Source: Minisyncoccota bacterium | GTDB taxonomy: Bacteria; Patescibacteriota; Minisyncoccia; Phycocordibacterales; UBA918 | Direction: 5' to 3' | Length of the DNA: 64,000 nucleotides | NCBI GenBank assembly: GCA_022841645.1 | Contig: JALHRC010000003.1 | Location: 6,553-70,552 of the forward strand | Part shown: positions 3,404 through 51,448 of the stretch, piece after piece | How positions within the stretch are numbered: position 1 is the stretch's first letter | Layout: every line of letters starts with the position of its first letter | The notes under the pieces: generated by a model | The model's input: only the letters and a program-made list of their open reading frames with translations | Databases searched by the model: none | Told to the model about the DNA's origin: nothing | Translations under genes and position numbers: made by a program

Positions 3404-4777
3404 ATGAAGCCATCCCCATCTCTACTAGCCGATTTTACTAAGGCTTTTAAGGAAGCTGACATTCGTGGTGTCTACCCCCGCGAGCTCGATGACGAGGTGG
3501 TGTATCTCATCGCCCGCGCGTTTGTTGAACGAGGTTCGTATAAAAAGGTAGTCGTTGGGCGCGACATGCGCCTCTCCTCGCCCGCCCTACGTGAAGCTTT
3601 TGTGCGCGGCGCGGTCGACGCTGGAGCTGGGGTGGTCGATATCGGCCTGTGCACCACACCCATGCTCTACTTCGCTTCGGCCACTCTGAAGCTTCCGGGT
3701 GTGATGATTACCGCCTCGCACAGTCCCAAGGATCACAATGGGCTCAAGCTCGTTGCCGCCGGTGCGGTGCCTTTGACTTCCAGAACTGGTCTAGACGCTA
3801 TTTTGAAATGTCTGCAGCACGGTCGTTTCCTCTCCGCCGCTCGTCGTCCGGGAAAGATTGTACATAAAGAAGTCGCGGCAGCGTTCGGTCGCTTTGTTTT
3901 AAAAAGTCACCGCACGCCTCCGGCCGCCACGCCACTACGTGTCGTCGTCGACTGCGGTAGTGGGATGGGAGCGCTGCTCCTGCCGCTGCTGCCGCGCCTC
4001 GGGCTTACGGTGACGCCGCTCTTTGCTGAACTCGATGGTACTTTTCCACATCGTGGGTCTAATCCGACGGTCCCTAAAAATCAGCAAGCTATCGTGGCTG
4101 AACTCAAAAAGGGTGGCTATGACTTTGGTATTGCTTTCGATGGCGACGCTGACCGCATTGCATTTTTTGACGAGACAGGTCATTACGTTAACTGTGGTGC
4201 TATTGGCGCGCTCATTGCTGAGCGTCTTCTCAGTACACACCCCAAAGCCACCTGCGTCGGTACGGTACTGACAAGCCGCGCCTACCGTGAAGCGGTGGTT
4301 GGCGCTGGTGGCCGCCACGCGCTTGCCAGGGTAGGGCATACCTATGTCAAAGAAGTAATGCACGCAAAAGATGCGGTATTTGGTTGCGAACACTCTGGTC
4401 ATTTTTTCTTTAAAGATTTTTTTTACACCGACTCAGTTGTGCTCACGCTGCGCTATGTTCTTGCGTCGTACCGCAGCCAGGGAGAGGGCTTCGCAAGCCT
4501 TCTTTCCCGCCATACGCACTACCACCAAACTGAAGATCTGATGGTTGCTGTGCGTGACGTGATAAAGGCAGAGCGCGGCATGGCGGAATATGCGTCGAGT
4601 GAAAACGCCCGACTAACAGTGCGGGATGGACTCACCCTCGATTATGGCGACGTGTGGGTGGTGATAAAACCATCAGTGACCGAGACGGCTCTCAACATCA
4701 TGGCGGAAGGGAAGGATAAGAAGCGTGCCATCACCCTTCGTGACCGGGCAGTTGCCAAGGCGCGTGCGCTCGCGTAA
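3404..4777 (+). CDS. phosphoglucomutase/phosphomannomutase (alpha-D-phosphohexomutase)
   Basis: active-site serine loop TASHSPKDHNGLK; metal-binding FDGDADR; 457 aa. Confidence 0.8.
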   Translation: MKPSPSLLADFTKAFKEADIRGVYPRELDDEVVYLIARAFVERGSYKKVVVGRDMRLSSPALREAFVRGAVDAGAGVVDIGLCTTPMLYFASATLKLPGVMITASHSPKDHNGLKLVAAGAVPLTSRTGLDAILKCLQHGRFLSAARRPGKIVHKEVAAAFGRFVLKSHRTPPAATPLRVVVDCGSGMGALLLPLLPRLGLTVTPLFAELDGTFPHRGSNPTVPKNQQAIVAELKKGGYDFGIAFDGDADRIAFFDETGHYVNCGAIGALIAERLLSTHPKATCVGTVLTSRAYREAVVGAGGRHALARVGHTYVKEVMHAKDAVFGCEHSGHFFFKDFFYTDSVVLTLRYVLASYRSQGEGFASLLSRHTHYHQTEDLMVAVRDVIKAERGMAEYASSENARLTVRDGLTLDYGDVWVVIKPSVTETALNIMAEGKDKKRAITLRDRAVAKARALA

Positions 4778-29668: not shown

Positions 29669-29883
29669 TTATGTAAGAATGATTAAGAAATCGCCCGCGC
29701 CTCCCTCAAAAGAGTGTGCGGGCTTTTCGTTGTGTGGGGTATAATTTTCACGAACAACAATGAGTACTGGAGCTTGCCAACTCTGGCAAATGTCCATGAG
29801 AGCAAAGGTGCCCTCGTACGCGGGCCCGCACCAAAACCAGGTAGAGAAGTCCGGTGCAGGACTTGACCCAGAATCACGGATTT
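29669..29883 (-). pseudogene. decayed fragment of an EEP (exonuclease III-like) gene paralogous to 44434-45162
   Basis: minus-strand translation ...APDFSTWFWCGPAYEGTFALMDICQSWQ... aligns with APEQLAVPLSKLGYQTTFAPMDIRQSGQ of the EEP protein; nucleotide block 29778-29812 about 85% identical to 44980-45015; no start codon. Confidence 0.4.
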
Positions 29884-29990
29884 TTATTTCGTCTGCGACT
29901 CATAAAAATGCTCGTGTTCTTGGTCGGCCCCTCGCGTAGGTTGCTCCTTAGTGGTCGCAACCTACATGCGCCGGGGCTTCAAGTCCTGAC
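29851..29990 (+). repeat. repeat module A1: partial tRNA-Val 3'-end copy + AGAATCACGG + covarying hairpin
   Basis: CCGGTGCAGGACTTGACCC (29851-29869) repeats tRNA-Val 3' part; hairpin GTAGGTTGC...GCAACCTAC 29937-29966; homologous to module B1 at 45212-45350. Confidence 0.6.
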
Positions 29991-30044
29991 ACAACGCCCG
30001 CAGGGGCGTTGTTCACCACGCACCGTCGTCGCTATGCTCCTCAA

Positions 30045-30140
30045 GTGGGGTCAAGTTTCTAATTCGCTACGCTTATAAGAACTTGCTCCCCTGGCTCGCC
30101 TGTTTTCTGCTGTAGGGACGGAGCAGAAAACATGGCTCCG
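30045..30140 (+). repeat. repeat module A2 of structured repeat family
   Basis: GTGGGGTCAAGTTTCTAATTCGCTACGCTTATAAG...hairpin GTTTTCTGC..GCAGAAAAC (30102-30131)...CATGGCTCCGCCTCGCAC; aligns with C1/C2/D. Confidence 0.65.
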
Positions 30141-30182
30141 CCTCGCACTCGAGCCCGCACGCAAAACTGTTTGCGTGCTATA

Positions 30183-30220
30183 CCAAAAAACAATACCCAC
30201 TAGGGGGTATTGTTTTTTGG
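30183..30220. terminator. terminator hairpin 3' of tRNA-Val
   Basis: CCAAAAAACAATACCC-ACTAG-GGGGTATTGTTTTTTGG. Confidence 0.65.
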
Positions 30221-30230
30221 TATGCTCAAG

Positions 30231-30303
30231 TGCGCGGTGCAGGACTTGAACCTACGACCCCCACAATGTCAATGTGGTGCTCTACCAGCTGAGCTAACCG
30301 CGC
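30231..30303 (-). tRNA. tRNA-Val (anticodon GAC)
   Basis: reverse complement: acceptor GCGCGGT/ACCGCGC, D-arm GCTC-AGCTGGTA-GAGC, anticodon loop TTGACAT, T-arm GTAGG-TTCAAGT-CCTGC. Confidence 0.9.
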
Positions 30304-30479
30304 GTGAGTCGAAAGATGGTACCACGCGCCACAAAAATGTGAAATGCAGGTTTTGCTCGGGGGGCTTTTTTGAAGGTAAACCGCTGTTTTTTGGTGGCGG
30401 CGTAACCGTTCCGGGCTAAATGAGAATTAGTGAATTGTTCCAAAATTGCACCGGGTACTCTAGCGGGGAGGTGGTTTGT

Positions 30480-31648
30480 AGCCACGAGTAGGCAACTTTC
30501 ATGGCTTCAAATAAGTCTTATTTACAAACTGTGCATGAGAGCTAATGCACAAGTTCACAAACATTTGAGACTCCTTAGCAATAAGGAAACCATGAGAATA
30601 CGGAGCACGTTGAGAGGAGTGAAGGGGTTTGTGGTGGCGTGGGAGCGTCTGGTACGGTTCCGCTATATGATTAGCGACAAAGCCAAGGAACGGTGCCGGA
30701 TCCTCGCCTTCTGGGAACGACATGGTCTTGACGCCACGAGAGAAGCCTTCGGTGTCTCGCGGGCCACACTCTTCCGCTGGCAACAAGCGCTCCAAAAGAG
30801 ACAAGGGAAACTAGAAGGACTGAATGCCAAGAGCACGGCTCCGAGGCGAAGGCGACAGCGCACCATTCCTGACGCGGTCCGGAACCTCATCTTGAGCGAA
30901 CGCCTCATGGATCCTCGCCTCGGCAAAGACAAGCTGGCTCAGTTAATCAAAGACGACGGCCTCGGCACGTATAGTGCCTCGACCGTGGGGCGGATGCTTA
31001 AGGATCTGCAGCGACAGGGGGTACTCCCTGATCCACGACCGCTGTCCTTTCATGGGAAGACCGGCAGACACCACGAGAAGCACCAGTCATACAAGCCCAA
31101 GCAGCGCAGCACGCACCACGAAGGTGCCCTGGCGAAAGCCGATACGGTGGTGCGGTTTATCGATGGTCTAAAACGATACATCGTCACCGGTATCGATACT
31201 GAGACCAAGTTCGCGTTTGCCTATGCCTATCCGAGCCACTCGTCAGCGGCCGCCGCCGACTTCATGCGTCTCTTTAAAGCGGTGGCACCCGTCTCCATCA
31301 CCCACGTGCAGACTGACAACGGTTCGGAGTTCGCCTGTCACTTCGAAGCCACCTTGGGTGCATATGGGATAACTCACTTCCATACGTACCCGCGCTCTCC
31401 TAAACAGAATGCCGAGATCGAACGCTTTAACCGCACCCTCTGGGAAGCCTTTGCTCGGTACCGCAAGACCACCCTGGCTCATGACCTCTCGGCCTTTAAT
31501 CGAGAGCTGATGGAGTGGCTCCTCTGGTACAACACGAGGCGACCCCACCAGACGCTTGGCCAAGTATCACCGCTAGGGTACATTGTGTCGACGTTATCAG
31601 AGGTGGAGTCTCAAAGGTGCTGGACGAGTACAAGCTATTGACAAAACA
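30480..31648 (+). mobile_element. IS481-like insertion sequence (right end defined, left end uncertain)
   Basis: right terminus TACAAGCTATTGACAAAACA (31629-31648) resembles IS481 terminal repeat ...TACAACCTATTGACAGTTCACA (from memory); no matching left inverted repeat found. Confidence 0.4.
30592..31641 (+). CDS. IS481-family DDE transposase
   Basis: N-terminal HTH (GVSRATLFRWQQ), rve core with YNTRRPHQTLG; ATG 30592 with AAGGA RBS (ORF track extends to 30430); stop lies within a terminal repeat-like sequence. Confidence 0.8.
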   Translation: MRIRSTLRGVKGFVVAWERLVRFRYMISDKAKERCRILAFWERHGLDATREAFGVSRATLFRWQQALQKRQGKLEGLNAKSTAPRRRRQRTIPDAVRNLILSERLMDPRLGKDKLAQLIKDDGLGTYSASTVGRMLKDLQRQGVLPDPRPLSFHGKTGRHHEKHQSYKPKQRSTHHEGALAKADTVVRFIDGLKRYIVTGIDTETKFAFAYAYPSHSSAAAADFMRLFKAVAPVSITHVQTDNGSEFACHFEATLGAYGITHFHTYPRSPKQNAEIERFNRTLWEAFARYRKTTLAHDLSAFNRELMEWLLWYNTRRPHQTLGQVSPLGYIVSTLSEVESQRCWTSTSY

Positions 31649-32351: not shown

Positions 32352-34310
32352 ATGTCCTACTCAGTCGTTGTACCTACTTACTGTCGTCCGGCGAAACTCA
32401 ATCAGTGTCTATGCACTTTGCTTGAACAATCTATCTTACCGGGGGAGGTTCTAGTTGTTGATGATGATTCCCCTGGGCAGGCCACACATCAAGTGTGTCT
32501 AGATTTGGATAATCTATTTCAGCAAAAAAATATCAACCTTAGGTACCTAAAACACAGTAAAAATCGCGGTCCTGCTGCGGCACGGAATACTGGGTTGCGA
32601 AGTGCCGTGTTTGAAACTGTCTTCTTTACAGATGATGACTGCATCTTGCCAACTGAGTGGGCTAGTAATCATATACGAACACATGAATGTCATGTCGACG
32701 CCGCTGCGGTCCATGGGTGGTACACTCCAAAGGCAGGTAAGAATATATATGACGAATACGAAGAGGTTTCTTTAAATCTTTTGCTTCCAGATTTTTTTAC
32801 GTCAGAAATATACGGAGACAGTCCCTTGGTCCCTCTTGCTAATACAGCAAATCTCTCAGTCAAAAAGAGTATTTTAGAGAAAGCCCAGGTATATTTTGAT
32901 GAAAGTATTGTTTTTACCGGTAATGAAGATTTTGAATTCTCCTTGAGTATAAATCAAAAAGGACTTAGTCGTGTCCATATCCCATTTTGTGTTATTCATG
33001 ACAGGGTGTGGGATCTCAGGAGCTACATCAAAGCTGGTGTTTTGCGAGGAAGAGGTCATGACTATTGCGTTCAGAAGTATTTTTTTGGAAGAGGACGAAA
33101 GAGTCTTTTTGCTTTTGTGTCAGTAGCATTGTTTAAGTCGTTTGAGTATGGTTCAAGAAGGTTGCATTTGGTTTTTCTTCTTACGTACTTAAGTCACTGG
33201 TTGGGCAAGACAGTCAACGTTGTAGCGAATTTCAAGCCGCCCCAACCGCTCACATTTGGTATAAGGGTTTCAAGCATGGCTTGGAAAAAAGAAGGTTTAA
33301 TTATCAGGAAACACGAGTGGCATCCCTTTTATGCGGCACATCGATACTCTAATAGGCCACCAAGCACAGGTAATACTTTTTGCTCAGTTATAGTGCCCAC
33401 TTATGATCGTTCGAGTTTATTAAAACTTCAACTTCCATATATTTTAAATCAGAGTATCAGCGCTGAACGTTATGAAATTATTATTGTTGATGACGGGTCA
33501 ACCGATGATACTGAAGAGGTTGTTTCGGATCTTGTTAAACGCAACCCAACTCATACTATTAGGTACATCTATCAAAAAAACCACGGTGCAGCAGCTGCTC
33601 GTAATGCTGGAGCAAAAATAAGTAAGGGCGACCTATTAATTTTTATTGATAGTGATGTGGTTCCTGACCGGCACTGGATTAGTGACCATGTATATGCACA
33701 TAGCTTATTTCCAGAAATATCAGCCGCCGGTGGAGGTCAAATTGTTGAAGCAGAAAACGCGACCATTTTTGACAAGCACAGAAATTCACTTTTTTGTAAT
33801 CAGTTTGCAAAAAGGTACCCTTATTCAACTCTAATTACTAACAATACCTTTCAGCGAGTTCATGCTTTTGACACAGGGAATTTGTCTATTAAAAAAAACG
33901 CCCTTGAATCCCTGGGCGGCTTTGATGAAGATCTATTAAGGCATCAAGATATGGAATTTGGTTTTAGACTACAGAACAGCGGTCGACTGGTTGCTTTGTT
34001 ACCAATTACGGTAAAATCGATAAGATCGACCACTTTCAGGGATTTTATAGATCTTGTCAGAAAACAGGCAATTTCGTACCCAATCCTTTTTCAAAAAATA
34101 AAGCCCTTACCGAAAGAATCATTGAGAATAAAAAACTCAATAGAGAACTACGGCATTTTAATGGCTTTGTTAAATTTTTTATTCAACATTAGCACCTTTG
34201 GCAGGGTTTATTTAATAGAGTGGTTTGTTTTAAAAAAGTACTACAAAACAGTACAGAGTCGTGAAGGCTCAAATTCAAATAATCACGATAGTTCGTTGTC
34301 CTCCGTTTAA
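32352..34310 (+). CDS. tandem family-2 glycosyltransferase (two GT-A domains)
   Basis: two copies of VVPTY..D(D)(D) and GxAAARNxG motifs (aa about 1-110 and about 335-440); AT-rich. Confidence 0.75.
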   Translation: MSYSVVVPTYCRPAKLNQCLCTLLEQSILPGEVLVVDDDSPGQATHQVCLDLDNLFQQKNINLRYLKHSKNRGPAAARNTGLRSAVFETVFFTDDDCILPTEWASNHIRTHECHVDAAAVHGWYTPKAGKNIYDEYEEVSLNLLLPDFFTSEIYGDSPLVPLANTANLSVKKSILEKAQVYFDESIVFTGNEDFEFSLSINQKGLSRVHIPFCVIHDRVWDLRSYIKAGVLRGRGHDYCVQKYFFGRGRKSLFAFVSVALFKSFEYGSRRLHLVFLLTYLSHWLGKTVNVVANFKPPQPLTFGIRVSSMAWKKEGLIIRKHEWHPFYAAHRYSNRPPSTGNTFCSVIVPTYDRSSLLKLQLPYILNQSISAERYEIIIVDDGSTDDTEEVVSDLVKRNPTHTIRYIYQKNHGAAAARNAGAKISKGDLLIFIDSDVVPDRHWISDHVYAHSLFPEISAAGGGQIVEAENATIFDKHRNSLFCNQFAKRYPYSTLITNNTFQRVHAFDTGNLSIKKNALESLGGFDEDLLRHQDMEFGFRLQNSGRLVALLPITVKSIRSTTFRDFIDLVRKQAISYPILFQKIKPLPKESLRIKNSIENYGILMALLNFLFNISTFGRVYLIEWFVLKKYYKTVQSREGSNSNNHDSSLSSV

Positions 34311-34324
34311 AAGCAACTCAATAT

Positions 34325-35851
34325 ATGGAATTAGACTCAGGGATATCAGATTTTACCACTCATGGTTCTGCAGAAAGACGTTTAATGTCTGAGGTTATTA
34401 AAGACTGCATATCTCACCCATTTACTCCGTTTAAGCCACTGCCAAGGAGCATTAAAGCCCTGGTTCTTTTTTGTTTATCCTGCGTTTGGTTTGTAGAGCT
34501 GCTTGGCAGGCGTAGATTCTTTACTGAAAGTAGTTTGGGCAATTTTTCAAATATTGATTCAAGAGTTCGGCGTGTTCTGGGTGAATTAGTCACACAGAAA
34601 GTGATTAAAATGTGGTACGTTTTTGCTACAAAATTATCGGGTGGGTCATCGGTGGTACAAGCGCTTATACAAATTGCTCCATACCAGGCTCCGAACGGCC
34701 TAATTTTTCCTTGGCCTGGTGGTTTAGCCTCTGGTGTAAGTATGAATCTGCACGACGCCATGTGCATAGCACTTGCCGAAACCGTCGAGCGCCACGCCTT
34801 GTACGCTTGGTCGTCAGAACGTAAATTTGAAGCTAGCTATAGAGAAGTTTTTAAAAAAGCTCTTCCGCTGCATGAGTTCAAACCTTACTCAGAGACACAA
34901 CTGTCAACACCGGATTTTTGGAACTGGTCTCTTAGGAATACTGATCAAAAGATGCTCTGGATGTGGTCAAATGAGTTTGTTTCTGGACTCCCCGTGTTAC
35001 TCCCCGCTCAACTCGTCTATTGTAACTATAACCAGGTTCGTCCCGACGAACAGCAGCTTTTAGAGGTTACTTCTAATGGCGTTGCAGCATCAACAAACCT
35101 TAAACTGGCGAGGCATAAAGCAATTTTGGAGGCAATTGAAAGGGACGCCTTTTTACTACATTGGCTTAACGAGACTCCACCCACATGCCTAGATATAGGT
35201 TCTATTGATGACGTTGAGATCCTGGGTCTGCTAGAAATTGTTAAAAAACATGACTACGAAATCACAATTCTCGATTTCCCCAATGATATACAGATACCCG
35301 TCATGGGAGCGCTCATGTTTGGTCCTTCTGGAAAAAGAGCCGTTACCATACAATTGGCTGCTGGCTTTGATGTAAGAGAAACCCTAAGGAAGGTAATTTT
35401 AGATTGCACTCGCTCGCTCCGCGTAGCTAATAGTGAAGTTTCGAAAAGCTTTTCCTACCAAGACATTATTAATAATCCCCAGTTAATTACAAATATAAAC
35501 AGCCGTCGCGAATTATGGCAACATCCAGAAATGATCCCCCATGTAAGTTTCTTAAAGAAAGGACAGGTCATTGGATGGCAGCAATATAAACATAACTATA
35601 GTCTACATTGCAGCATGTCTTTAAATGGTAAGGAGGAATGGGTGCGGACGCGTTTGCGATCACTAGGATATCAATGTTATGTAGCAAATATCACATCCAT
35701 CACAGCAAGACGTTATGGTCTGCATGTTACAAGAGCCTTTTTACCACAGCTCATACCAATGTATTTTGATGAGAAACGCGTCCCGCTCGGCATAATTAGA
35801 TTGAACAAAATGAGAGGCGGATTAAACACTGTTCCACACCCCTTCTTATAA
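34325..35851 (+). CDS. YcaO-domain protein
   Basis: GVSMNLHDAMCIALAETVERHALYAW and TSNGVAASTNLKLARHKAILEAIERDAFLLHWLN match the two hallmark YcaO ATP-binding motifs; about 130-aa N-terminal extension. Confidence 0.7.
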   Translation: MELDSGISDFTTHGSAERRLMSEVIKDCISHPFTPFKPLPRSIKALVLFCLSCVWFVELLGRRRFFTESSLGNFSNIDSRVRRVLGELVTQKVIKMWYVFATKLSGGSSVVQALIQIAPYQAPNGLIFPWPGGLASGVSMNLHDAMCIALAETVERHALYAWSSERKFEASYREVFKKALPLHEFKPYSETQLSTPDFWNWSLRNTDQKMLWMWSNEFVSGLPVLLPAQLVYCNYNQVRPDEQQLLEVTSNGVAASTNLKLARHKAILEAIERDAFLLHWLNETPPTCLDIGSIDDVEILGLLEIVKKHDYEITILDFPNDIQIPVMGALMFGPSGKRAVTIQLAAGFDVRETLRKVILDCTRSLRVANSEVSKSFSYQDIINNPQLITNINSRRELWQHPEMIPHVSFLKKGQVIGWQQYKHNYSLHCSMSLNGKEEWVRTRLRSLGYQCYVANITSITARRYGLHVTRAFLPQLIPMYFDEKRVPLGIIRLNKMRGGLNTVPHPFL

Positions 35852-35970
35852 ATTAAATCATTATTTTTTTGAATTTTACCTTTGCTTTATGAGAAAGGTG
35901 CAAGTAAAGTAGTGACCGTATGGTGTGCATAGACAGATTGCCTGCTTCTTGATCTGCTATAATAAATCCT

Positions 35971-37524
35971 ATGAGTTTTTCGTGGAAAACTAGCCTGGTC
36001 AAACTTTCTGAGAATCGCCCTCTCTGGCTTGTTGGGATGATGGTGCTGGTGTGGTTTGTTTTTGAGCCTGACTTCTTGGAGACAATATTTCAGTTTTTTG
36101 TAGTATTGTCGCAGGCTGCCGATGGTACGCCGTCAGGACAAGATTGCTCGTGCTGTGGAAATGCCCAAAATGGAGGGGAAAACTTCAACACATCAACACC
36201 TTTCTTGTGTGTTTATAAAAATGGTTCCTATGAAATTGACAATGATCTGATGTATGGCAAGAAGACAACTTTTTTTTCCAACTTTGAATTAGGAAGGCGT
36301 GTTTATGAAGAAGGAAGTCTCGTCCCTGAAATTTACAAAATCTCGACAAATCCTGATTTGATAGATGGAAAAATCAAACTACAGCTTATTGAGCTAGAAC
36401 CCGAGGATTCGTACATTGATACGGTTAAGTTATCAAAAATCATTTATCCTGCTACTGCTGAGTTGGTTGTTGATGCGTCTTTTAGCGGTATGTACGCGGT
36501 AAAACGTGACGACATTATTAACCGGGTGGGAGTTTCCGGGGTCAGCCTCACTCCGCAGTTTTTGGGCAATCGGCGATCAACTTCTCCTGAAATTAGTATT
36601 GAAAGATTATCTTCTGAACAACAATTCAATTCTCTTTGCCAAAAGAATCAGCCTGGCATACGCTTCGAAGACGGTGATGTCCTAGAAGTCACCGCTAAAG
36701 TTGAATCGCTTGAGGCCGATAAACTCCTTTTGTTTGTCGGGGCAAACTATCGAGACTGGCTGCTTTCTTCGGATGCGACACCGCGTACAGCACGGAAGAT
36801 CTTGAAGCGAACAGCTCTACTTAGTCCATTTTGGTCTAGTGCTGCTCGCGTTGCAATCATGATATTCATGCTTTTCCCGGTCTGGGTTGTTAGCTCGCTG
36901 CTGTCCACAAGCCGTCAGACAGCAAATGATGGTAGTGAAATGGACTTTATGCGAGCCTTTGGCATCCCCGCAACTAGTGCTGACGTTCCTTCTCGAACAC
37001 CGAAGTGTTTCAATGTGGAATATTGGGACGGTTCACATTTTGTGCCAATAACTTTTATTCAGCCACGATACTGTCACAGCACACTCGAGGCTGTGTCCGT
37101 ACCATGGGAAGCGGTGGACGGACAGGGTCTTCTTAAATTGAGACTAATCGCAACCAATACACACAATCTCTCTTATATCTCACTGGCCGCACCTTCGTCG
37201 TTGATGTTGTATAAATCAGCTGATCTCTCGCTCAGTTCGGCCCACTGCAATCGTGCTGGTGGTGACTCTACCGACGTACTCAGCTCGGAAAAAAATGCTT
37301 CATACGTTCATGTTATTCCTGCCGACACAATTGAGCTCGAGTTTACAGAACCAGGCAATTTTATTGCCAAAGAAGGCGAAAAGGAGTCCTACGTGATTAG
37401 TGTCCGCGGCTTTTACACTAGCCTTTCTGAGGAAAGTAAAGTAATTGCTGGAGACTGGGAATCAAGATTAAGTGAAGAGTCGGCTAACTGGCTGCAAGAA
37501 ATGGTTGCCATGGGACGACGCTAA
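35971..37524 (+). CDS. hypothetical membrane protein (517 aa)
   Basis: N-terminal and central TM segments; CSCCGNAQNGGE cysteine cluster; no known domain. Confidence 0.35.
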   Translation: MSFSWKTSLVKLSENRPLWLVGMMVLVWFVFEPDFLETIFQFFVVLSQAADGTPSGQDCSCCGNAQNGGENFNTSTPFLCVYKNGSYEIDNDLMYGKKTTFFSNFELGRRVYEEGSLVPEIYKISTNPDLIDGKIKLQLIELEPEDSYIDTVKLSKIIYPATAELVVDASFSGMYAVKRDDIINRVGVSGVSLTPQFLGNRRSTSPEISIERLSSEQQFNSLCQKNQPGIRFEDGDVLEVTAKVESLEADKLLLFVGANYRDWLLSSDATPRTARKILKRTALLSPFWSSAARVAIMIFMLFPVWVVSSLLSTSRQTANDGSEMDFMRAFGIPATSADVPSRTPKCFNVEYWDGSHFVPITFIQPRYCHSTLEAVSVPWEAVDGQGLLKLRLIATNTHNLSYISLAAPSSLMLYKSADLSLSSAHCNRAGGDSTDVLSSEKNASYVHVIPADTIELEFTEPGNFIAKEGEKESYVISVRGFYTSLSEESKVIAGDWESRLSEESANWLQEMVAMGRR

Positions 37525-44433: not shown

Positions 44434-45162
44434 TTAGATCTGCTTTGTTAGGTGGGCGATAACCGCGGCATGATCGCTGATCCCAAAGCGTAAGGTGACG
44501 TTCTTGGCACTATAGGGTCCCTTGGTAAATAGGTAGTCCACCATGAATGAGTCAAAGAGGAATTTTAGCTCTGGGTTTTTACCGTGGCGGTGGAGCGAGG
44601 CATCAAGGCTGCTTTTATACTGTGCTGGTATAGTGTCGGTGTAGTGCTCCGTGAGGTTTGTGTAGAGGGGATTGTGCTGGCGGGGAATGTTAAAGTCGCC
44701 ACAGAGGATGTGTGGTGGTAGGGGAGCTAGTGTCTCTAAAAGCGCTGCCATGTTCGCCTGCTGTTCGGGACTGGCGATCTCACCTCGTGGCGACCAGGTG
44801 AAATGCGTGGTAGCGATAGTGTAGTCGCCGACGCTCGCGATAATGACTGCCCGCGCCACGGTCCCTGGCACGTTGGTGACATCAATCGGAACAATCGCCT
44901 CGGTGGGGCGGTGGTAGTACTCACTCCGTGCAGAGGAAGGGAGCCGACTGGCAAGTAATATGCCTTCGGTAAAGGCCTCTTGACCACTCTGGCGAATGTC
45001 CATAGGAGCGAAGGTGGTCTGGTATCCAAGTTTACTAAGCGGCACTGCCAATTGCTCGGGGGCCTCCTGAAGGCAGAGAACGTCCGCCCTCTCGGTCTCT
45101 AGAAAGGGAAGTACTTTATCGAGGTGAGTGATGCCTTCAACATTGAGCGAGATGAGTTTCAT
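44434..45162 (-). CDS. endonuclease/exonuclease/phosphatase (EEP) family protein, exonuclease III-like
   Basis: MKLISLNVEG...LCLQE N-terminus and C-terminal SDH motif typical of EEP fold. Confidence 0.7.
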   Translation of the reverse strand: MKLISLNVEGITHLDKVLPFLETERADVLCLQEAPEQLAVPLSKLGYQTTFAPMDIRQSGQEAFTEGILLASRLPSSARSEYYHRPTEAIVPIDVTNVPGTVARAVIIASVGDYTIATTHFTWSPRGEIASPEQQANMAALLETLAPLPPHILCGDFNIPRQHNPLYTNLTEHYTDTIPAQYKSSLDASLHRHGKNPELKFLFDSFMVDYLFTKGPYSAKNVTLRFGISDHAAVIAHLTKQI

Positions 45163-45211: not shown

Positions 45212-45350
45212 GGAAGCGGAGAGATTTGACCCAGAATCGCGGCTCTTTTACTTCGCTACGCTTGTAAAAGTGACTCGCGTTCTCGGTCGACACCTCGCGT
45301 GTTTTACTCTTTGACGTCGCAAAACACAAGCTCCGGTGCTTCAAATCCCT
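45212..45350 (+). repeat. repeat module B1: partial tRNA-Ser 3'-end copy + AGAATCGCGG + covarying hairpin
   Basis: GGAAGCGGAGAGATTTGACCC (45212-45232) repeats tRNA-Ser 3' part; TTCGCTACGCTTGTAAAAG 45252-45270; hairpin GTGTTTTAC...GCAAAACAC 45299-45327; T-loop-like GGTGCTTCAAATCCCT 45335-45350. Confidence 0.6.
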
Positions 45351-45387
45351 ACGTACCGTGCGCAGGCACGGTACTCCGCTTCCGCGA

Positions 45388-45421
45388 ACAAAATATGCGT
45401 CCACAAGGGACGCTATTTTGT
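45388..45421. terminator. terminator hairpin 3' of tRNA-Ser, nested in a 13-bp inverted repeat with the tRNA 3' end
   Basis: ACAAAATATGCGTCC-ACAA-GGGACGCTATTTTGT; outer CTCCGCTTCCGCG (45375-45387) complements CGCGGAAGCGGAG (45426-45438). Confidence 0.6.
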
Positions 45422-45426
45422 ACTCG

Positions 45427-45513
45427 CGGAAGCGGAGGGATTTGAACCCTCGATAGAGTTTCCCCTATGCCGGTTTTCGAAACCGGTACCTTCAACCACT
45501 CAGCCACGCTTCC
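45427..45513 (-). tRNA. tRNA-Ser (anticodon CGA), type II with long variable arm
   Basis: reverse complement: acceptor GGAAGCG/CGCTTCC, discriminator G, anticodon stem CCGGT/ACCGG loop TTCGAAA, T-arm GAGGG-TTCAAAT-CCCTC. Confidence 0.85.
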
Positions 45514-45562
45514 AGTGGGAACGGTGCTATACTAGCACCGTTATTCAGTAAGTTTCAAATGT

Positions 45563-50985: not shown

Positions 50986-51044
50986 GTCGAGTAAGTGGAA
51001 TAGGGGCGTTCATACCAGTGTCGCAAGCCAGCCTGGTTATGTGT

Positions 51045-51147
51045 GTGGTCACGAGTTACTAATTCGCTACGCTCATAAGTACTCTCGACCCCGGCTCGGC
51101 CGTTTTAGCTTTAGGAAAAAGCTGAAAACATGCCTGCGGCCGTCACC
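51045..51147 (+). repeat. structured repeat family copy C1
   Basis: GTGGTCACGAGTTACTAATTCGCTACGCTCATAAGTACTCTCGACCCCGGCTCGGCC-hairpin GTTTTAGCTTT..AAAGCTGAAAAC-ATGCCTGCGGCCGTCACC. Confidence 0.7.
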
Positions 51148-51176
51148 GCGACACGTCAGCGACATTAGTCGCTCTT

Positions 51177-51296
51177 GTGGTCACCAGTCACTAAGCGTAT
51201 TTGTTCACTACGTTCCAAATCCGCTAAGTGCTGTCGACCCCGCCTCGCGGTTTCCGCCGCTTTGACGGCGACGGAAACATCGCTGCGGCCGTCACA
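51177..51296 (+). repeat. structured repeat family copy C2 (tandem to C1)
   Basis: GTGGTCACCAGTCACTAAGCG...CCGCTAAGTGCTGTCGACCCCGCCTCGCG-hairpin GTTTCCGCCGC..GCGACGGAAAC-ATCGCTGCGGCCGTCACA. Confidence 0.7.
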
Positions 51297-51325
51297 CGAG
51301 CCGAAACTGAAAGCTTTCAGTTTCT

Positions 51326-51370
51326 AAAACGAAACAGCCTTCTTTGGATGAAGAAGGCGGTTTCGTTTTT
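51326..51370. terminator. terminator hairpin 3' of tRNA-Glu
   Basis: AAAACGAAACAGCCTTCTT-TGGATG-AAGAAGGCGGTTTCGTTTTT; additional hairpin GAAACTGAAAGCTTTCAGTTTC 51303-51324. Confidence 0.6.
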
Positions 51371-51376
51371 GTCGTG

Positions 51377-51448
51377 TGACCCCACCGGGAGTCGAACCCG
51401 GCTTTAAAGCTTGAAAAGCTTTCGTCCTAACCGATAGACGATGGGGCC
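51377..51448 (-). tRNA. tRNA-Glu (anticodon TTC)
   Basis: reverse complement: acceptor GGCCCCA/TGGGGTC, anticodon stem AAAGC/GCTTT loop TTTTCAA, T-arm CCGGG-TTCGACT-CCCGG. Confidence 0.8.

Follow-up and report, generated by a model that had tools for sequence, protein, structure and literature searches.

A conserved, structured non-coding element behind tRNA genes of Patescibacteria, with a two-part antisense copy of the tRNA 3′ end and signs of mobility

Downstream of the tRNA-Val(GAC) gene of a Minisyncoccota bacterium (assembly GCA_022841645.1, contig JALHRC010000003.1) lie two tandem units of a real, conserved, tRNA-anchored structured element that has apparently not been described before. 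The site is referred to here as locus A and occupies positions 29,669 to 30,303 of the 64,000-nt stretch that was analysed (the window). The interpretation favoured here, with roughly even confidence, is that both units belong to a non-autonomous structured mobile element that homes to tRNA genes and whose target is set by a built-in antisense. The observations that carry this interpretation are the anatomy of the units, covariation in their fold, complementarity specific to the adjoining tRNA, a strand bias, their position and several signatures of mobility. All readings are given on the tRNA (minus) strand of the window, and L-numbers (L001 etc.) are labels of other loci examined.

Read from 5′ to 3′, a unit consists of a hairpin or terminator (H), an anti-acceptor segment, a second hairpin (P2), an anti-T segment, a core made up of P4, an irregular P5 and P6, and a sense copy (S′), the whole being non-coding and about 150-215 nt in size. 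The anti-acceptor and anti-T together constitute a split antisense of the last ~22 nt of the adjoining tRNA gene, including trailer bases or an encoded CCA. The sense copy begins in the tRNA T-loop, right after ..GGGUC, and follows the core and ..GAUUCUGGGUC; this anatomy is constant across the loci compared. At locus A the sense segment (S) is the 3′ part of tRNA-Val, from T-loop to discriminator, plus the trailer, and this is matched by both downstream units, A2 next to the tRNA and A1 farther away (Table 1). The resulting direct repeat, CGGTGCAGGACTTGACCC (29852-29869) versus CGGTGCAGGACTTGAACC (30235-30252), was located with a repeat finder and is identical at 17/18 positions. An estimated ~0.002 such pairs would be expected by chance in a 2-kb region, and the layout of a tRNA with a repeated 3′ end recurs at more than 20 other tRNA loci. 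A preliminary description of this DNA had reported the tRNA gene and the repeat correctly, although the two copies are 383 nt apart and not 360 as it stated.

A second site in the window, locus B behind tRNA-Ser(CGA), contains a single unit, and the ~175 nt behind the hairpins of loci A and B align, with stem sequences that differ yet remain complementary. In both, a decamer (AGAATCACGG at 29870-29879 and AGAATCGCGG at 45233-45242) directly follows the partial tRNA copy. This shared decamer (AGAATCRCGG), already noticed in the preliminary description, is the 3′ strand of the conserved helix P5 (CCGYGAUUCU), and an inverted T-loop piece at 29973-29988, likewise noticed there, is the 5′ strand of a helix (P3) in which it pairs with the tRNA-end copy. 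The two repeat modules proposed at locus A are both matched by a covariance model, A1 at 29855-30027 with 151 bits and A2 at 30038-30190 with 33 bits (E=2e-8). A2 belongs to a divergent subfamily (1c); within its antisense, GCUCGAGUG pairs with CACUUGAGC, which represents the last bases of tRNA-Val plus the trailer (30224-30232), its core bears a GCGUAGCGAA apical motif and CACTTGAG..CAT is repeated at its 3′ end. Two further family units of subfamily 1c, with weaker support than the others, are probably present behind tRNA-Glu, where GGGGUCGA..ACUUAG.. is found in addition to the GCGUAGCGAA apical motif. At least one unit thus accompanies 3/5 tRNA genes in the window, tRNA-Arg(CCT) and tRNA-Phe being without.

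Units A1 (z-score -6.9) and B (z-score -5.8) fold to one shape. Helix P1 joins the two ends of the unit, P2 follows, the anti-T pairs with the tRNA-end copy (P3), and P4 and a long irregular P5/P6 arm are enclosed within P3. The topology is tRNA-like, P1 corresponding to the acceptor stem, P2 to an arm and P3 to a T-stem in which the core replaces the T-loop. Standard pairs account for 94.3% of pair cells over 25 matches (24 distinct rows when aligned), compared with 71% in shuffles and 36-45% in slid controls, and double changes occur at 35/40 pairs, values reached by 0/500 shuffles, in an alignment that was fitted to the model's own structure, which tells against leaning on these counts too heavily. 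RNAalifold applied to a plain MAFFT alignment yields the same helices. The core of ~110 nt combines invariant unpaired bases with irregular helices and is ~85-90% identical between Saccharibacteria and Parcubacteria. The tRNA-sense strand is more stable than its complement in 29/33 copies (mean -5.9 kcal/mol, p=2e-5), and G-U pairs outnumber A-C pairs by 25 to 10; an RNA from the opposite strand is disfavoured on both grounds. RNA and DNA energy parameters produce the same fold, so that an RNA and a single-stranded DNA form are not separable by folding. When the whole transcript of tRNA-Ser and unit B is folded, the minimum free energy (MFE) structure has the antisense paired with the upstream copy of the tRNA, which creates a three-way junction together with H and P2, and the tRNA 5′ acceptor strand paired with S′. 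A pseudoknot between the P2 and P6 loops (CUGC with GCAG), seen by eye, fits some copies and shows no covariation, and was dropped.

The family extends well beyond the window. A degenerate pattern derived from P5 retrieved 13 copies at 12 genome loci, all of them in Patescibacteria (Kaiserbacteria, Nomurabacteria, Parcubacteria and Saccharibacteria), and also matches 20 metagenome loci, several of which represent the same genomes. The covariance model (R1; 172 positions, 40 pairs) additionally picks up weaker relatives, including A2 and a weak match behind tRNA-Glu in the window. Pattern scan and covariance model together give a family total of 50 copies on contigs of the same four groups. A tRNA gene on the same strand lies just upstream of 44/50 copies, at 11-41 nt for first units, ~190-240 nt for second units and 391 nt for one third unit, and at least 14 tRNA species are involved. 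Most tRNAs of the same genomes are without an element. Of the 6/50 exceptions, two are cut by contig ends and four are orphan copies, which amount to three distinct sites because L016 and L022 are one locus; at 2/3 of these sites the left flank is still faintly tRNA-3′-end-like. Orphan type-1 units at L010 (2451-2800 and 6126-6201) and L039 (2480-2775) have an anti-acceptor that fits tRNA-Val(tac) and a left flank that is only a decayed look-alike (..ATGGCCAC). At L010 a real tRNA-Val(tac) gene with an encoded CCA and no element is located 3.5 kb upstream, an arrangement that may reflect a later insertion between tRNA and element.

Two variants with a different core follow the same grammar as type 1, the class of A1 and B. 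Type 2 (L015 ~700-830, L020 1990-2150, L025 240-280 and L032 7470-7596) has an unbroken ~20-nt antisense of the tRNA 3′ end, no P2 and a related core ending in ..GUGACC that is followed by the tRNA sense copy, and is found in tandem with type 1 units, either type coming first. Type 3 was seen behind tRNA-Glu at L013 (~4560-4775, minus strand), where the anti-acceptor (GTGACCCCACG) is perfect and is accompanied by P2, an anti-T (GGGAATCGAA) and, distally, the copy TCCCCGTGGGGTC.

The antisense segments are specific for the adjoining tRNA. The anti-T pairs with its own tRNA over 10-14 contiguous nt in 19/20 copies and the anti-acceptor over 8-14 nt in 15/20, compared with mean runs of 4-9 nt for other tRNAs. 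At L011, L019, L021 and L033 the match continues into the trailer or the encoded CCA, and at these loci and L015 it forms perfect 27-30-bp palindromes together with H. The terminator palindromes of element-free tRNA sites, in contrast, end before the tRNA, which argues that the antisense arrives with the element. One contig contains copies behind both tRNA-His and tRNA-Gly(gcc). These two copies share one T-arm and their cores are nearly identical, and the anti-acceptors differ at exactly four positions, each fitting its own tRNA.

Mobility of the element is well supported. Units of 187-190 bp form tandem arrays behind tRNA-Leu (L012) and tRNA-Lys (L023, L031, L038), with two units in some samples and three in others; only weak hairpins separate the units and a strong terminator stands behind the last one (e.g., L031). 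Direct repeats of 14-58 bp occur at L012, L020, L024, L026, L030, L031 and L032, among them perfect repeats of 44 bp (tRNA-Cys of L012) and 58 bp (L030). At L024, L031, L020 and L017 the displaced tRNA-end copy is followed by a native-looking trailer and terminator. In the first three this terminator is unlike the one on the tRNA side, as would be expected if the element had inserted into the T-loop and supplied a replacement 3′ end. Orthologous tRNAs are patchily occupied, and empty sites occur. A truncated relic consisting of anti-acceptor, P2 and a broken anti-T remains at tRNA-Gly(gcc) of L018, the element being intact at the same tRNA in a related genome (L021). Relatives therefore do not share one identical arrangement, which would have spoken against integration, but vary in empty sites, relics and arrays of two or three units.

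Under the favoured interpretation of a tRNA-gene-homing mobile element, the element would enter the tRNA gene behind C56 in the T-loop; for the A2-type subfamily the entry point would be immediately beyond the tRNA 3′ end. It would bring a replacement tRNA 3′ end and hairpin, so that the interrupted tRNA is restored while the native 3′ end and terminator are shifted downstream. The antisense would act as the specificity determinant of this homing reaction. In the folded single strand, which might be a read-through RNA or single-stranded DNA, it could have two alternative partners, the tRNA copy upstream of it and the S′ downstream, the latter closing P3 and P1 around the core. Either pairing would bring the breakpoint (..UC|RA, tRNA position 56/57) to a three-way junction that adjoins the core where it is most conserved and irregular. 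Cutting and joining at this junction might be performed by an enzyme encoded elsewhere, conceivably a recombinase, a nuclease-ligase or a reverse transcriptase, or by the core itself. A bolder and distinctly tentative version is that the family represents a new kind of guided mobile element, namely a protein-less RNA or folded single-stranded DNA of ~170 nt with a retargetable split antisense guide, an S′ that mimics the target and keeps the guide closed, and a core that serves as a ribozyme or recruits a host enzyme for cutting and joining at the T-loop three-way junction. Such a natural combination of guide and decoy, if it exists, would be one that is not known from CRISPR, OMEGA or bridge systems.

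Several observations weigh against this interpretation, besides the model-fitted alignment mentioned above. No enzyme encoded near the element was found, no free or excised form was seen, and no clean filled/empty pair with otherwise identical alleles was recovered, including for loci A and B in close relatives. A strong terminator, and the lack of a promoter upstream of most single units, speak against an abundant RNA. In many copies S′ is just 8-14 nt long while the anti-acceptor and the real tRNA make up a perfect palindrome, which could point to a cis function on the tRNA precursor, or to palindrome correction during replication, instead of guiding. Hairpin H is wholly different from copy to copy and is thus possibly the locus's own terminator and not cargo, which blurs the left boundary of the element. 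Finally, the subfamily 1c units (A2 and those behind tRNA-Glu) fit the grammar of guide plus sense copy more poorly.

Alternatively, the element could be a non-coding RNA that serves the host, co-transcribed with the tRNA by read-through and functioning as a tRNA-like or 3′-end-sensing cis module on the precursor, with copies kept by selection; possible roles include 3′-end processing, quality control of read-through transcripts and release by RNase P or RNase Z. A conserved core with covariation, a tRNA-sense strand that folds better, promoter-like sites that are only those of the tRNAs, and arrays in which weak inter-unit hairpins give way to a real terminator after the last unit (L031) are all compatible with such a role, as are an antisense that matches precursor or gene sequence, trailer included, and a tRNA-mimicking topology in which the 5′ acceptor strand of tRNA-Ser pairs with S′ in the MFE structure. 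It is nevertheless considered rather unlikely, since a strong terminator usually stands between tRNA and element, pairing with the 3′ half would unfold the tRNA, most tRNAs of the same genomes lack the element and its presence at orthologous tRNAs is patchy. Relics, tRNA-less orphans and identical tandem units with copy-number polymorphism, moreover, have a selfish appearance.

The preliminary description had compared locus A to attL/attR scars, and the corresponding explanation would be that the repeats are the ends of a deleted integrase-borne island, or that a cis-mobilizable mini-element with double-stranded att sites is served by an integrase in trans, the fold being irrelevant. A regenerated tRNA with a displaced 3′ fragment and a breakpoint in the T-loop is the classic signature of islands that integrate into tRNA genes (PMC4383910), and repeated integration would be expected to give tandem arrays. 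Neither an island nor an integrase or any other gene was present between the repeats at ~32 loci examined, however, where only 150-380 nt of non-coding DNA intervene, and no matches to the element were obtained among viral contigs, phage records or plasmid records. The intervening sequence is furthermore conserved across classes with compensatory changes, unlike att arms, and includes antisense target copies that integrase sites do not need. The observation was largely right and its interpretation half right. An intact tRNA with a direct repeat of its 3′ end is a real and recurrent layout, and at several related loci the displaced copy leads into a native-looking trailer and terminator, but the label of a scar fails because the bases in between form a conserved element whose covarying structure and split antisense copy are foreign to integrase att sites. 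An integrase-borne origin is accordingly given little weight. Just as improbable is a passive cassette without machinery of its own, spread by DNA uptake and homologous recombination via the tRNA gene and its repeated 3′ end, with arrays arising by slippage and palindromes by template-switch correction. Units flanked by 18-58 bp direct repeats, arrays of identical units, palindromes that are free of mismatches just where the tRNA supplies one arm and the absence of an associated protein would all be accommodated by such a process; it leaves unexplained the ~85-90% identity of the ~110-nt core between Saccharibacteria and Parcubacteria, the match to the tRNA of an anti-T that lies beyond P2 and is not contiguous with the palindrome, and movement between different tRNAs.

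Several known systems share individual traits with the element. In integron attC sites and the attP hairpin of CTX phage, a single strand folds into a duplex recombination site with extruded hairpins, structure being conserved over stem sequence. The element, which also occurs in arrays, may resemble attC as a folded single strand; no integrase was found nearby, and an integron integrase, attI and GTTRRRY core sites are absent. It differs from both attC and CTX attP in a duplex that mimics the tRNA gene 3′ end and in its large conserved core. Members of the IS200/IS605 family have strand-specific hairpin ends, recognize the cleavage site through guide pairing across the hairpin, do not duplicate the target and give rise to non-coding derivatives that use an enzyme in trans; their guides are 4 nt long, compared with 10-22 nt here, and no TnpA or TnpB gene nearby and no homology were detected. 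Group IIC introns, which are retroelements, target sites directly behind intrinsic terminator hairpins, with a fixed orientation and short pairing to the flank, but are some ten times larger than the element, which has no reverse transcriptase open reading frame (ORF), domain V/VI or Rfam intron match. As in tDNA islands mobilized by tyrosine integrases (Islander-type), the tRNA gene is split and restored with a displaced 3′ fragment at the far end, the T-loop or the 3′ end contains the breakpoint, and insertions have one orientation and can be in tandem (PMC4383910); regeneration of the target together with a displaced fragment is a signature of tDNA-integrating elements (PMC4383910). The present element departs from them in being only 150-215 nt long and non-coding, with a covarying fold and antisense target copies and with neither integrase nor cargo. 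The bridge RNA (seekRNA) of IS110/IS1111 is likewise a non-coding RNA (~150-200 nt) that is structured and carried by a mobile element, and its short segments matching the target and the element's own end set specificity, as is proposed here (PMC11208160). Unlike IS110, however, the element has no DEDD recombinase gene in or next to it, no sequence or Rfam similarity was found, and in place of two loops for target and donor there is a single split antisense whose partners are the two copies of one repeat. Judged by this comparison, none of these systems appears to join a split 20-nt antisense and a sense mimic of the tRNA gene end around a conserved core.

Searches for partners and known relatives were otherwise negative. 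In Rfam 15, searched with the element at the gathering score and at E<=10, nothing credible was found and only tRNAs reach the gathering score. All-against-all clustering of 417 ORFs from 34 loci revealed no shared neighbour protein family, only local synteny, and Pfam scans of the window neighbours returned housekeeping genes and an IS481-like transposase but no DEDD/RuvC-like recombinase gene. The element has no promoter of its own, the promoter-like sites at loci A and B being those of the tRNAs; that of tRNA-Val is the sole such site between 29500 and 30500. A comparison by eye with consensus sequences gave no match to a hammerhead-like junction, C/D or H/ACA boxes or group II domain V. 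A leader (riboswitch or T-box) of the downstream gene was rejected, as the orientation of the downstream ORF is mixed and homologues of the EEP gene found near unit B occur elsewhere without the element. The EEP gene was similarly rejected as part of the system, its homologues lying in six other genome contexts without an upstream tRNA or element. A miniature inverted-repeat transposable element was discarded because the complementary ends (anti-acceptor and S′) are target-derived and vary between copies, and because the direct repeats (8-58 bp) have no fixed length. No description of such an element was found in the literature, of which coverage was incomplete, so that this is no proof of novelty.

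Table 1. Positions of the units and associated features in the window
Feature	Position	Strand	Remarks
Promoter-like site upstream of tRNA-Val	30316-30343	minus	TTCACA, 16 nt spacer, TG-TACCAT
tRNA-Val(GAC)	30230-30303	minus	ARAGORN and Rfam
Hairpin H, locus A	30180-30223		22-bp palindrome flanked by A and T runs, directly after tRNA-Val; repeat finder
Unit A2	30034-30190	minus	Next to tRNA-Val; divergent subfamily 1c
A2 P2 hairpin	30157-30178		
A2 antisense	30146-30156		GGGCUCGAGUG
A2 sense copy	30034-30047		CACTTGAGGAGCAT
Unit A1	29850-30027	minus	Farther from tRNA-Val; type 1
A1 anti-acceptor	30015-30024		GGUGCGUGGU
A1 P2	29991-30012		
A1 anti-T	29976-29988		CAGGACUUGAAGC
A1 core P4-P6	29865-29975		Includes CGACCAAGAACACGAG and CCGUGAUUCUGGGUC
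A1 sense copy	29850-29864		Copy of tRNA-Val 3′ end
EEP-like fragment	29773-29818	minus	46 nt, 80% identical to codons 46-61 of the EEP gene (44979-45024)
Promoter-like site of tRNA-Ser	45529-45558		
tRNA-Ser(CGA)	45426-45513	minus	ARAGORN and Rfam
Trailer and terminator hairpin H, locus B	45387-45425		Stem 45397-45413; terminator-like on both strands
Unit B	45212-45386	minus	Type 1
B anti-acceptor	about 45374-45385		GCGGAAGCGGAG
B P2	45353-45374		
B anti-T	45338-45349		GGGAUUUGAAGC
B core	45228-45337		
B sense copy	45212-45227		AAAUCUCUCCGCUUCC
Two tandem divergent units (probable) behind tRNA-Glu (51376-51448)	51037-51340	minus	Subfamily 1c; 14 bits, E=0.02

The terminator that the preliminary description placed between the repeats corresponds to hairpin H of locus A, which from its sequence looks like a two-way intrinsic terminator and was missed by a terminator pattern scan because the T run sits within the extended stem. 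At locus B the palindrome of H reaches beyond the hairpin, into the 3′ end of tRNA-Ser and into the anti-acceptor. A remnant of ~70 codons homologous to the EEP gene, which had been proposed to span 29669-29883, shrank on alignment to the ~16 codons listed in Table 1; the rest of that interval has no EEP similarity and 29850-29883 is the 3′ end of A1, the fragment itself being flank debris outside the element. Between A1 and this fragment, 25 nt (29812-29836) are 80% identical to part of A2 (30141-30165), a weak similarity that may represent debris of an older unit. Directly upstream of the tRNA-Val promoter, at 30430-31641 on the plus strand, lies the IS481-like transposase gene (rve, rve_3 and HTH_32 domains), which sits outside the repeats, is absent from other loci and is the sole recombinase gene in the window. 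Farther along the plus strand (32352-37524), a double GT2 glycosyltransferase, a YcaO cyclodehydratase and a 517-aa protein without a Pfam match are encoded in a row and may constitute a cluster for peptide modification, an unusual feature, if so, in a small genome of the Patescibacteria. In Logan assemblies of the same genome (L001-L005), all five contigs with the window's EEP gene contain unit B, and they stop within tRNA-Ser or the hairpin/anti-acceptor region just downstream, that is, at the upstream edge of the unit, suggesting that the repeats break short-read assemblies.

If the favoured interpretation of a tRNA-gene-homing mobile element is correct, Patescibacteria would hold a widespread class of tiny structured elements that recognize a particular tRNA gene through base pairing and take up a place downstream of it while leaving it undamaged, a new and very compact principle of sequence-programmed targeting that would stand beside CRISPR, OMEGA, bridge RNA and group II introns. 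It would also account for recurrent assembly breaks and for unannotated intergenic DNA beside tRNA genes in these bacteria. A covariance model with which the element can be annotated now exists, and even a conservative reading leaves a new conserved RNA family with links to tRNA biology, from bacteria in which RNA processing has hardly been studied.

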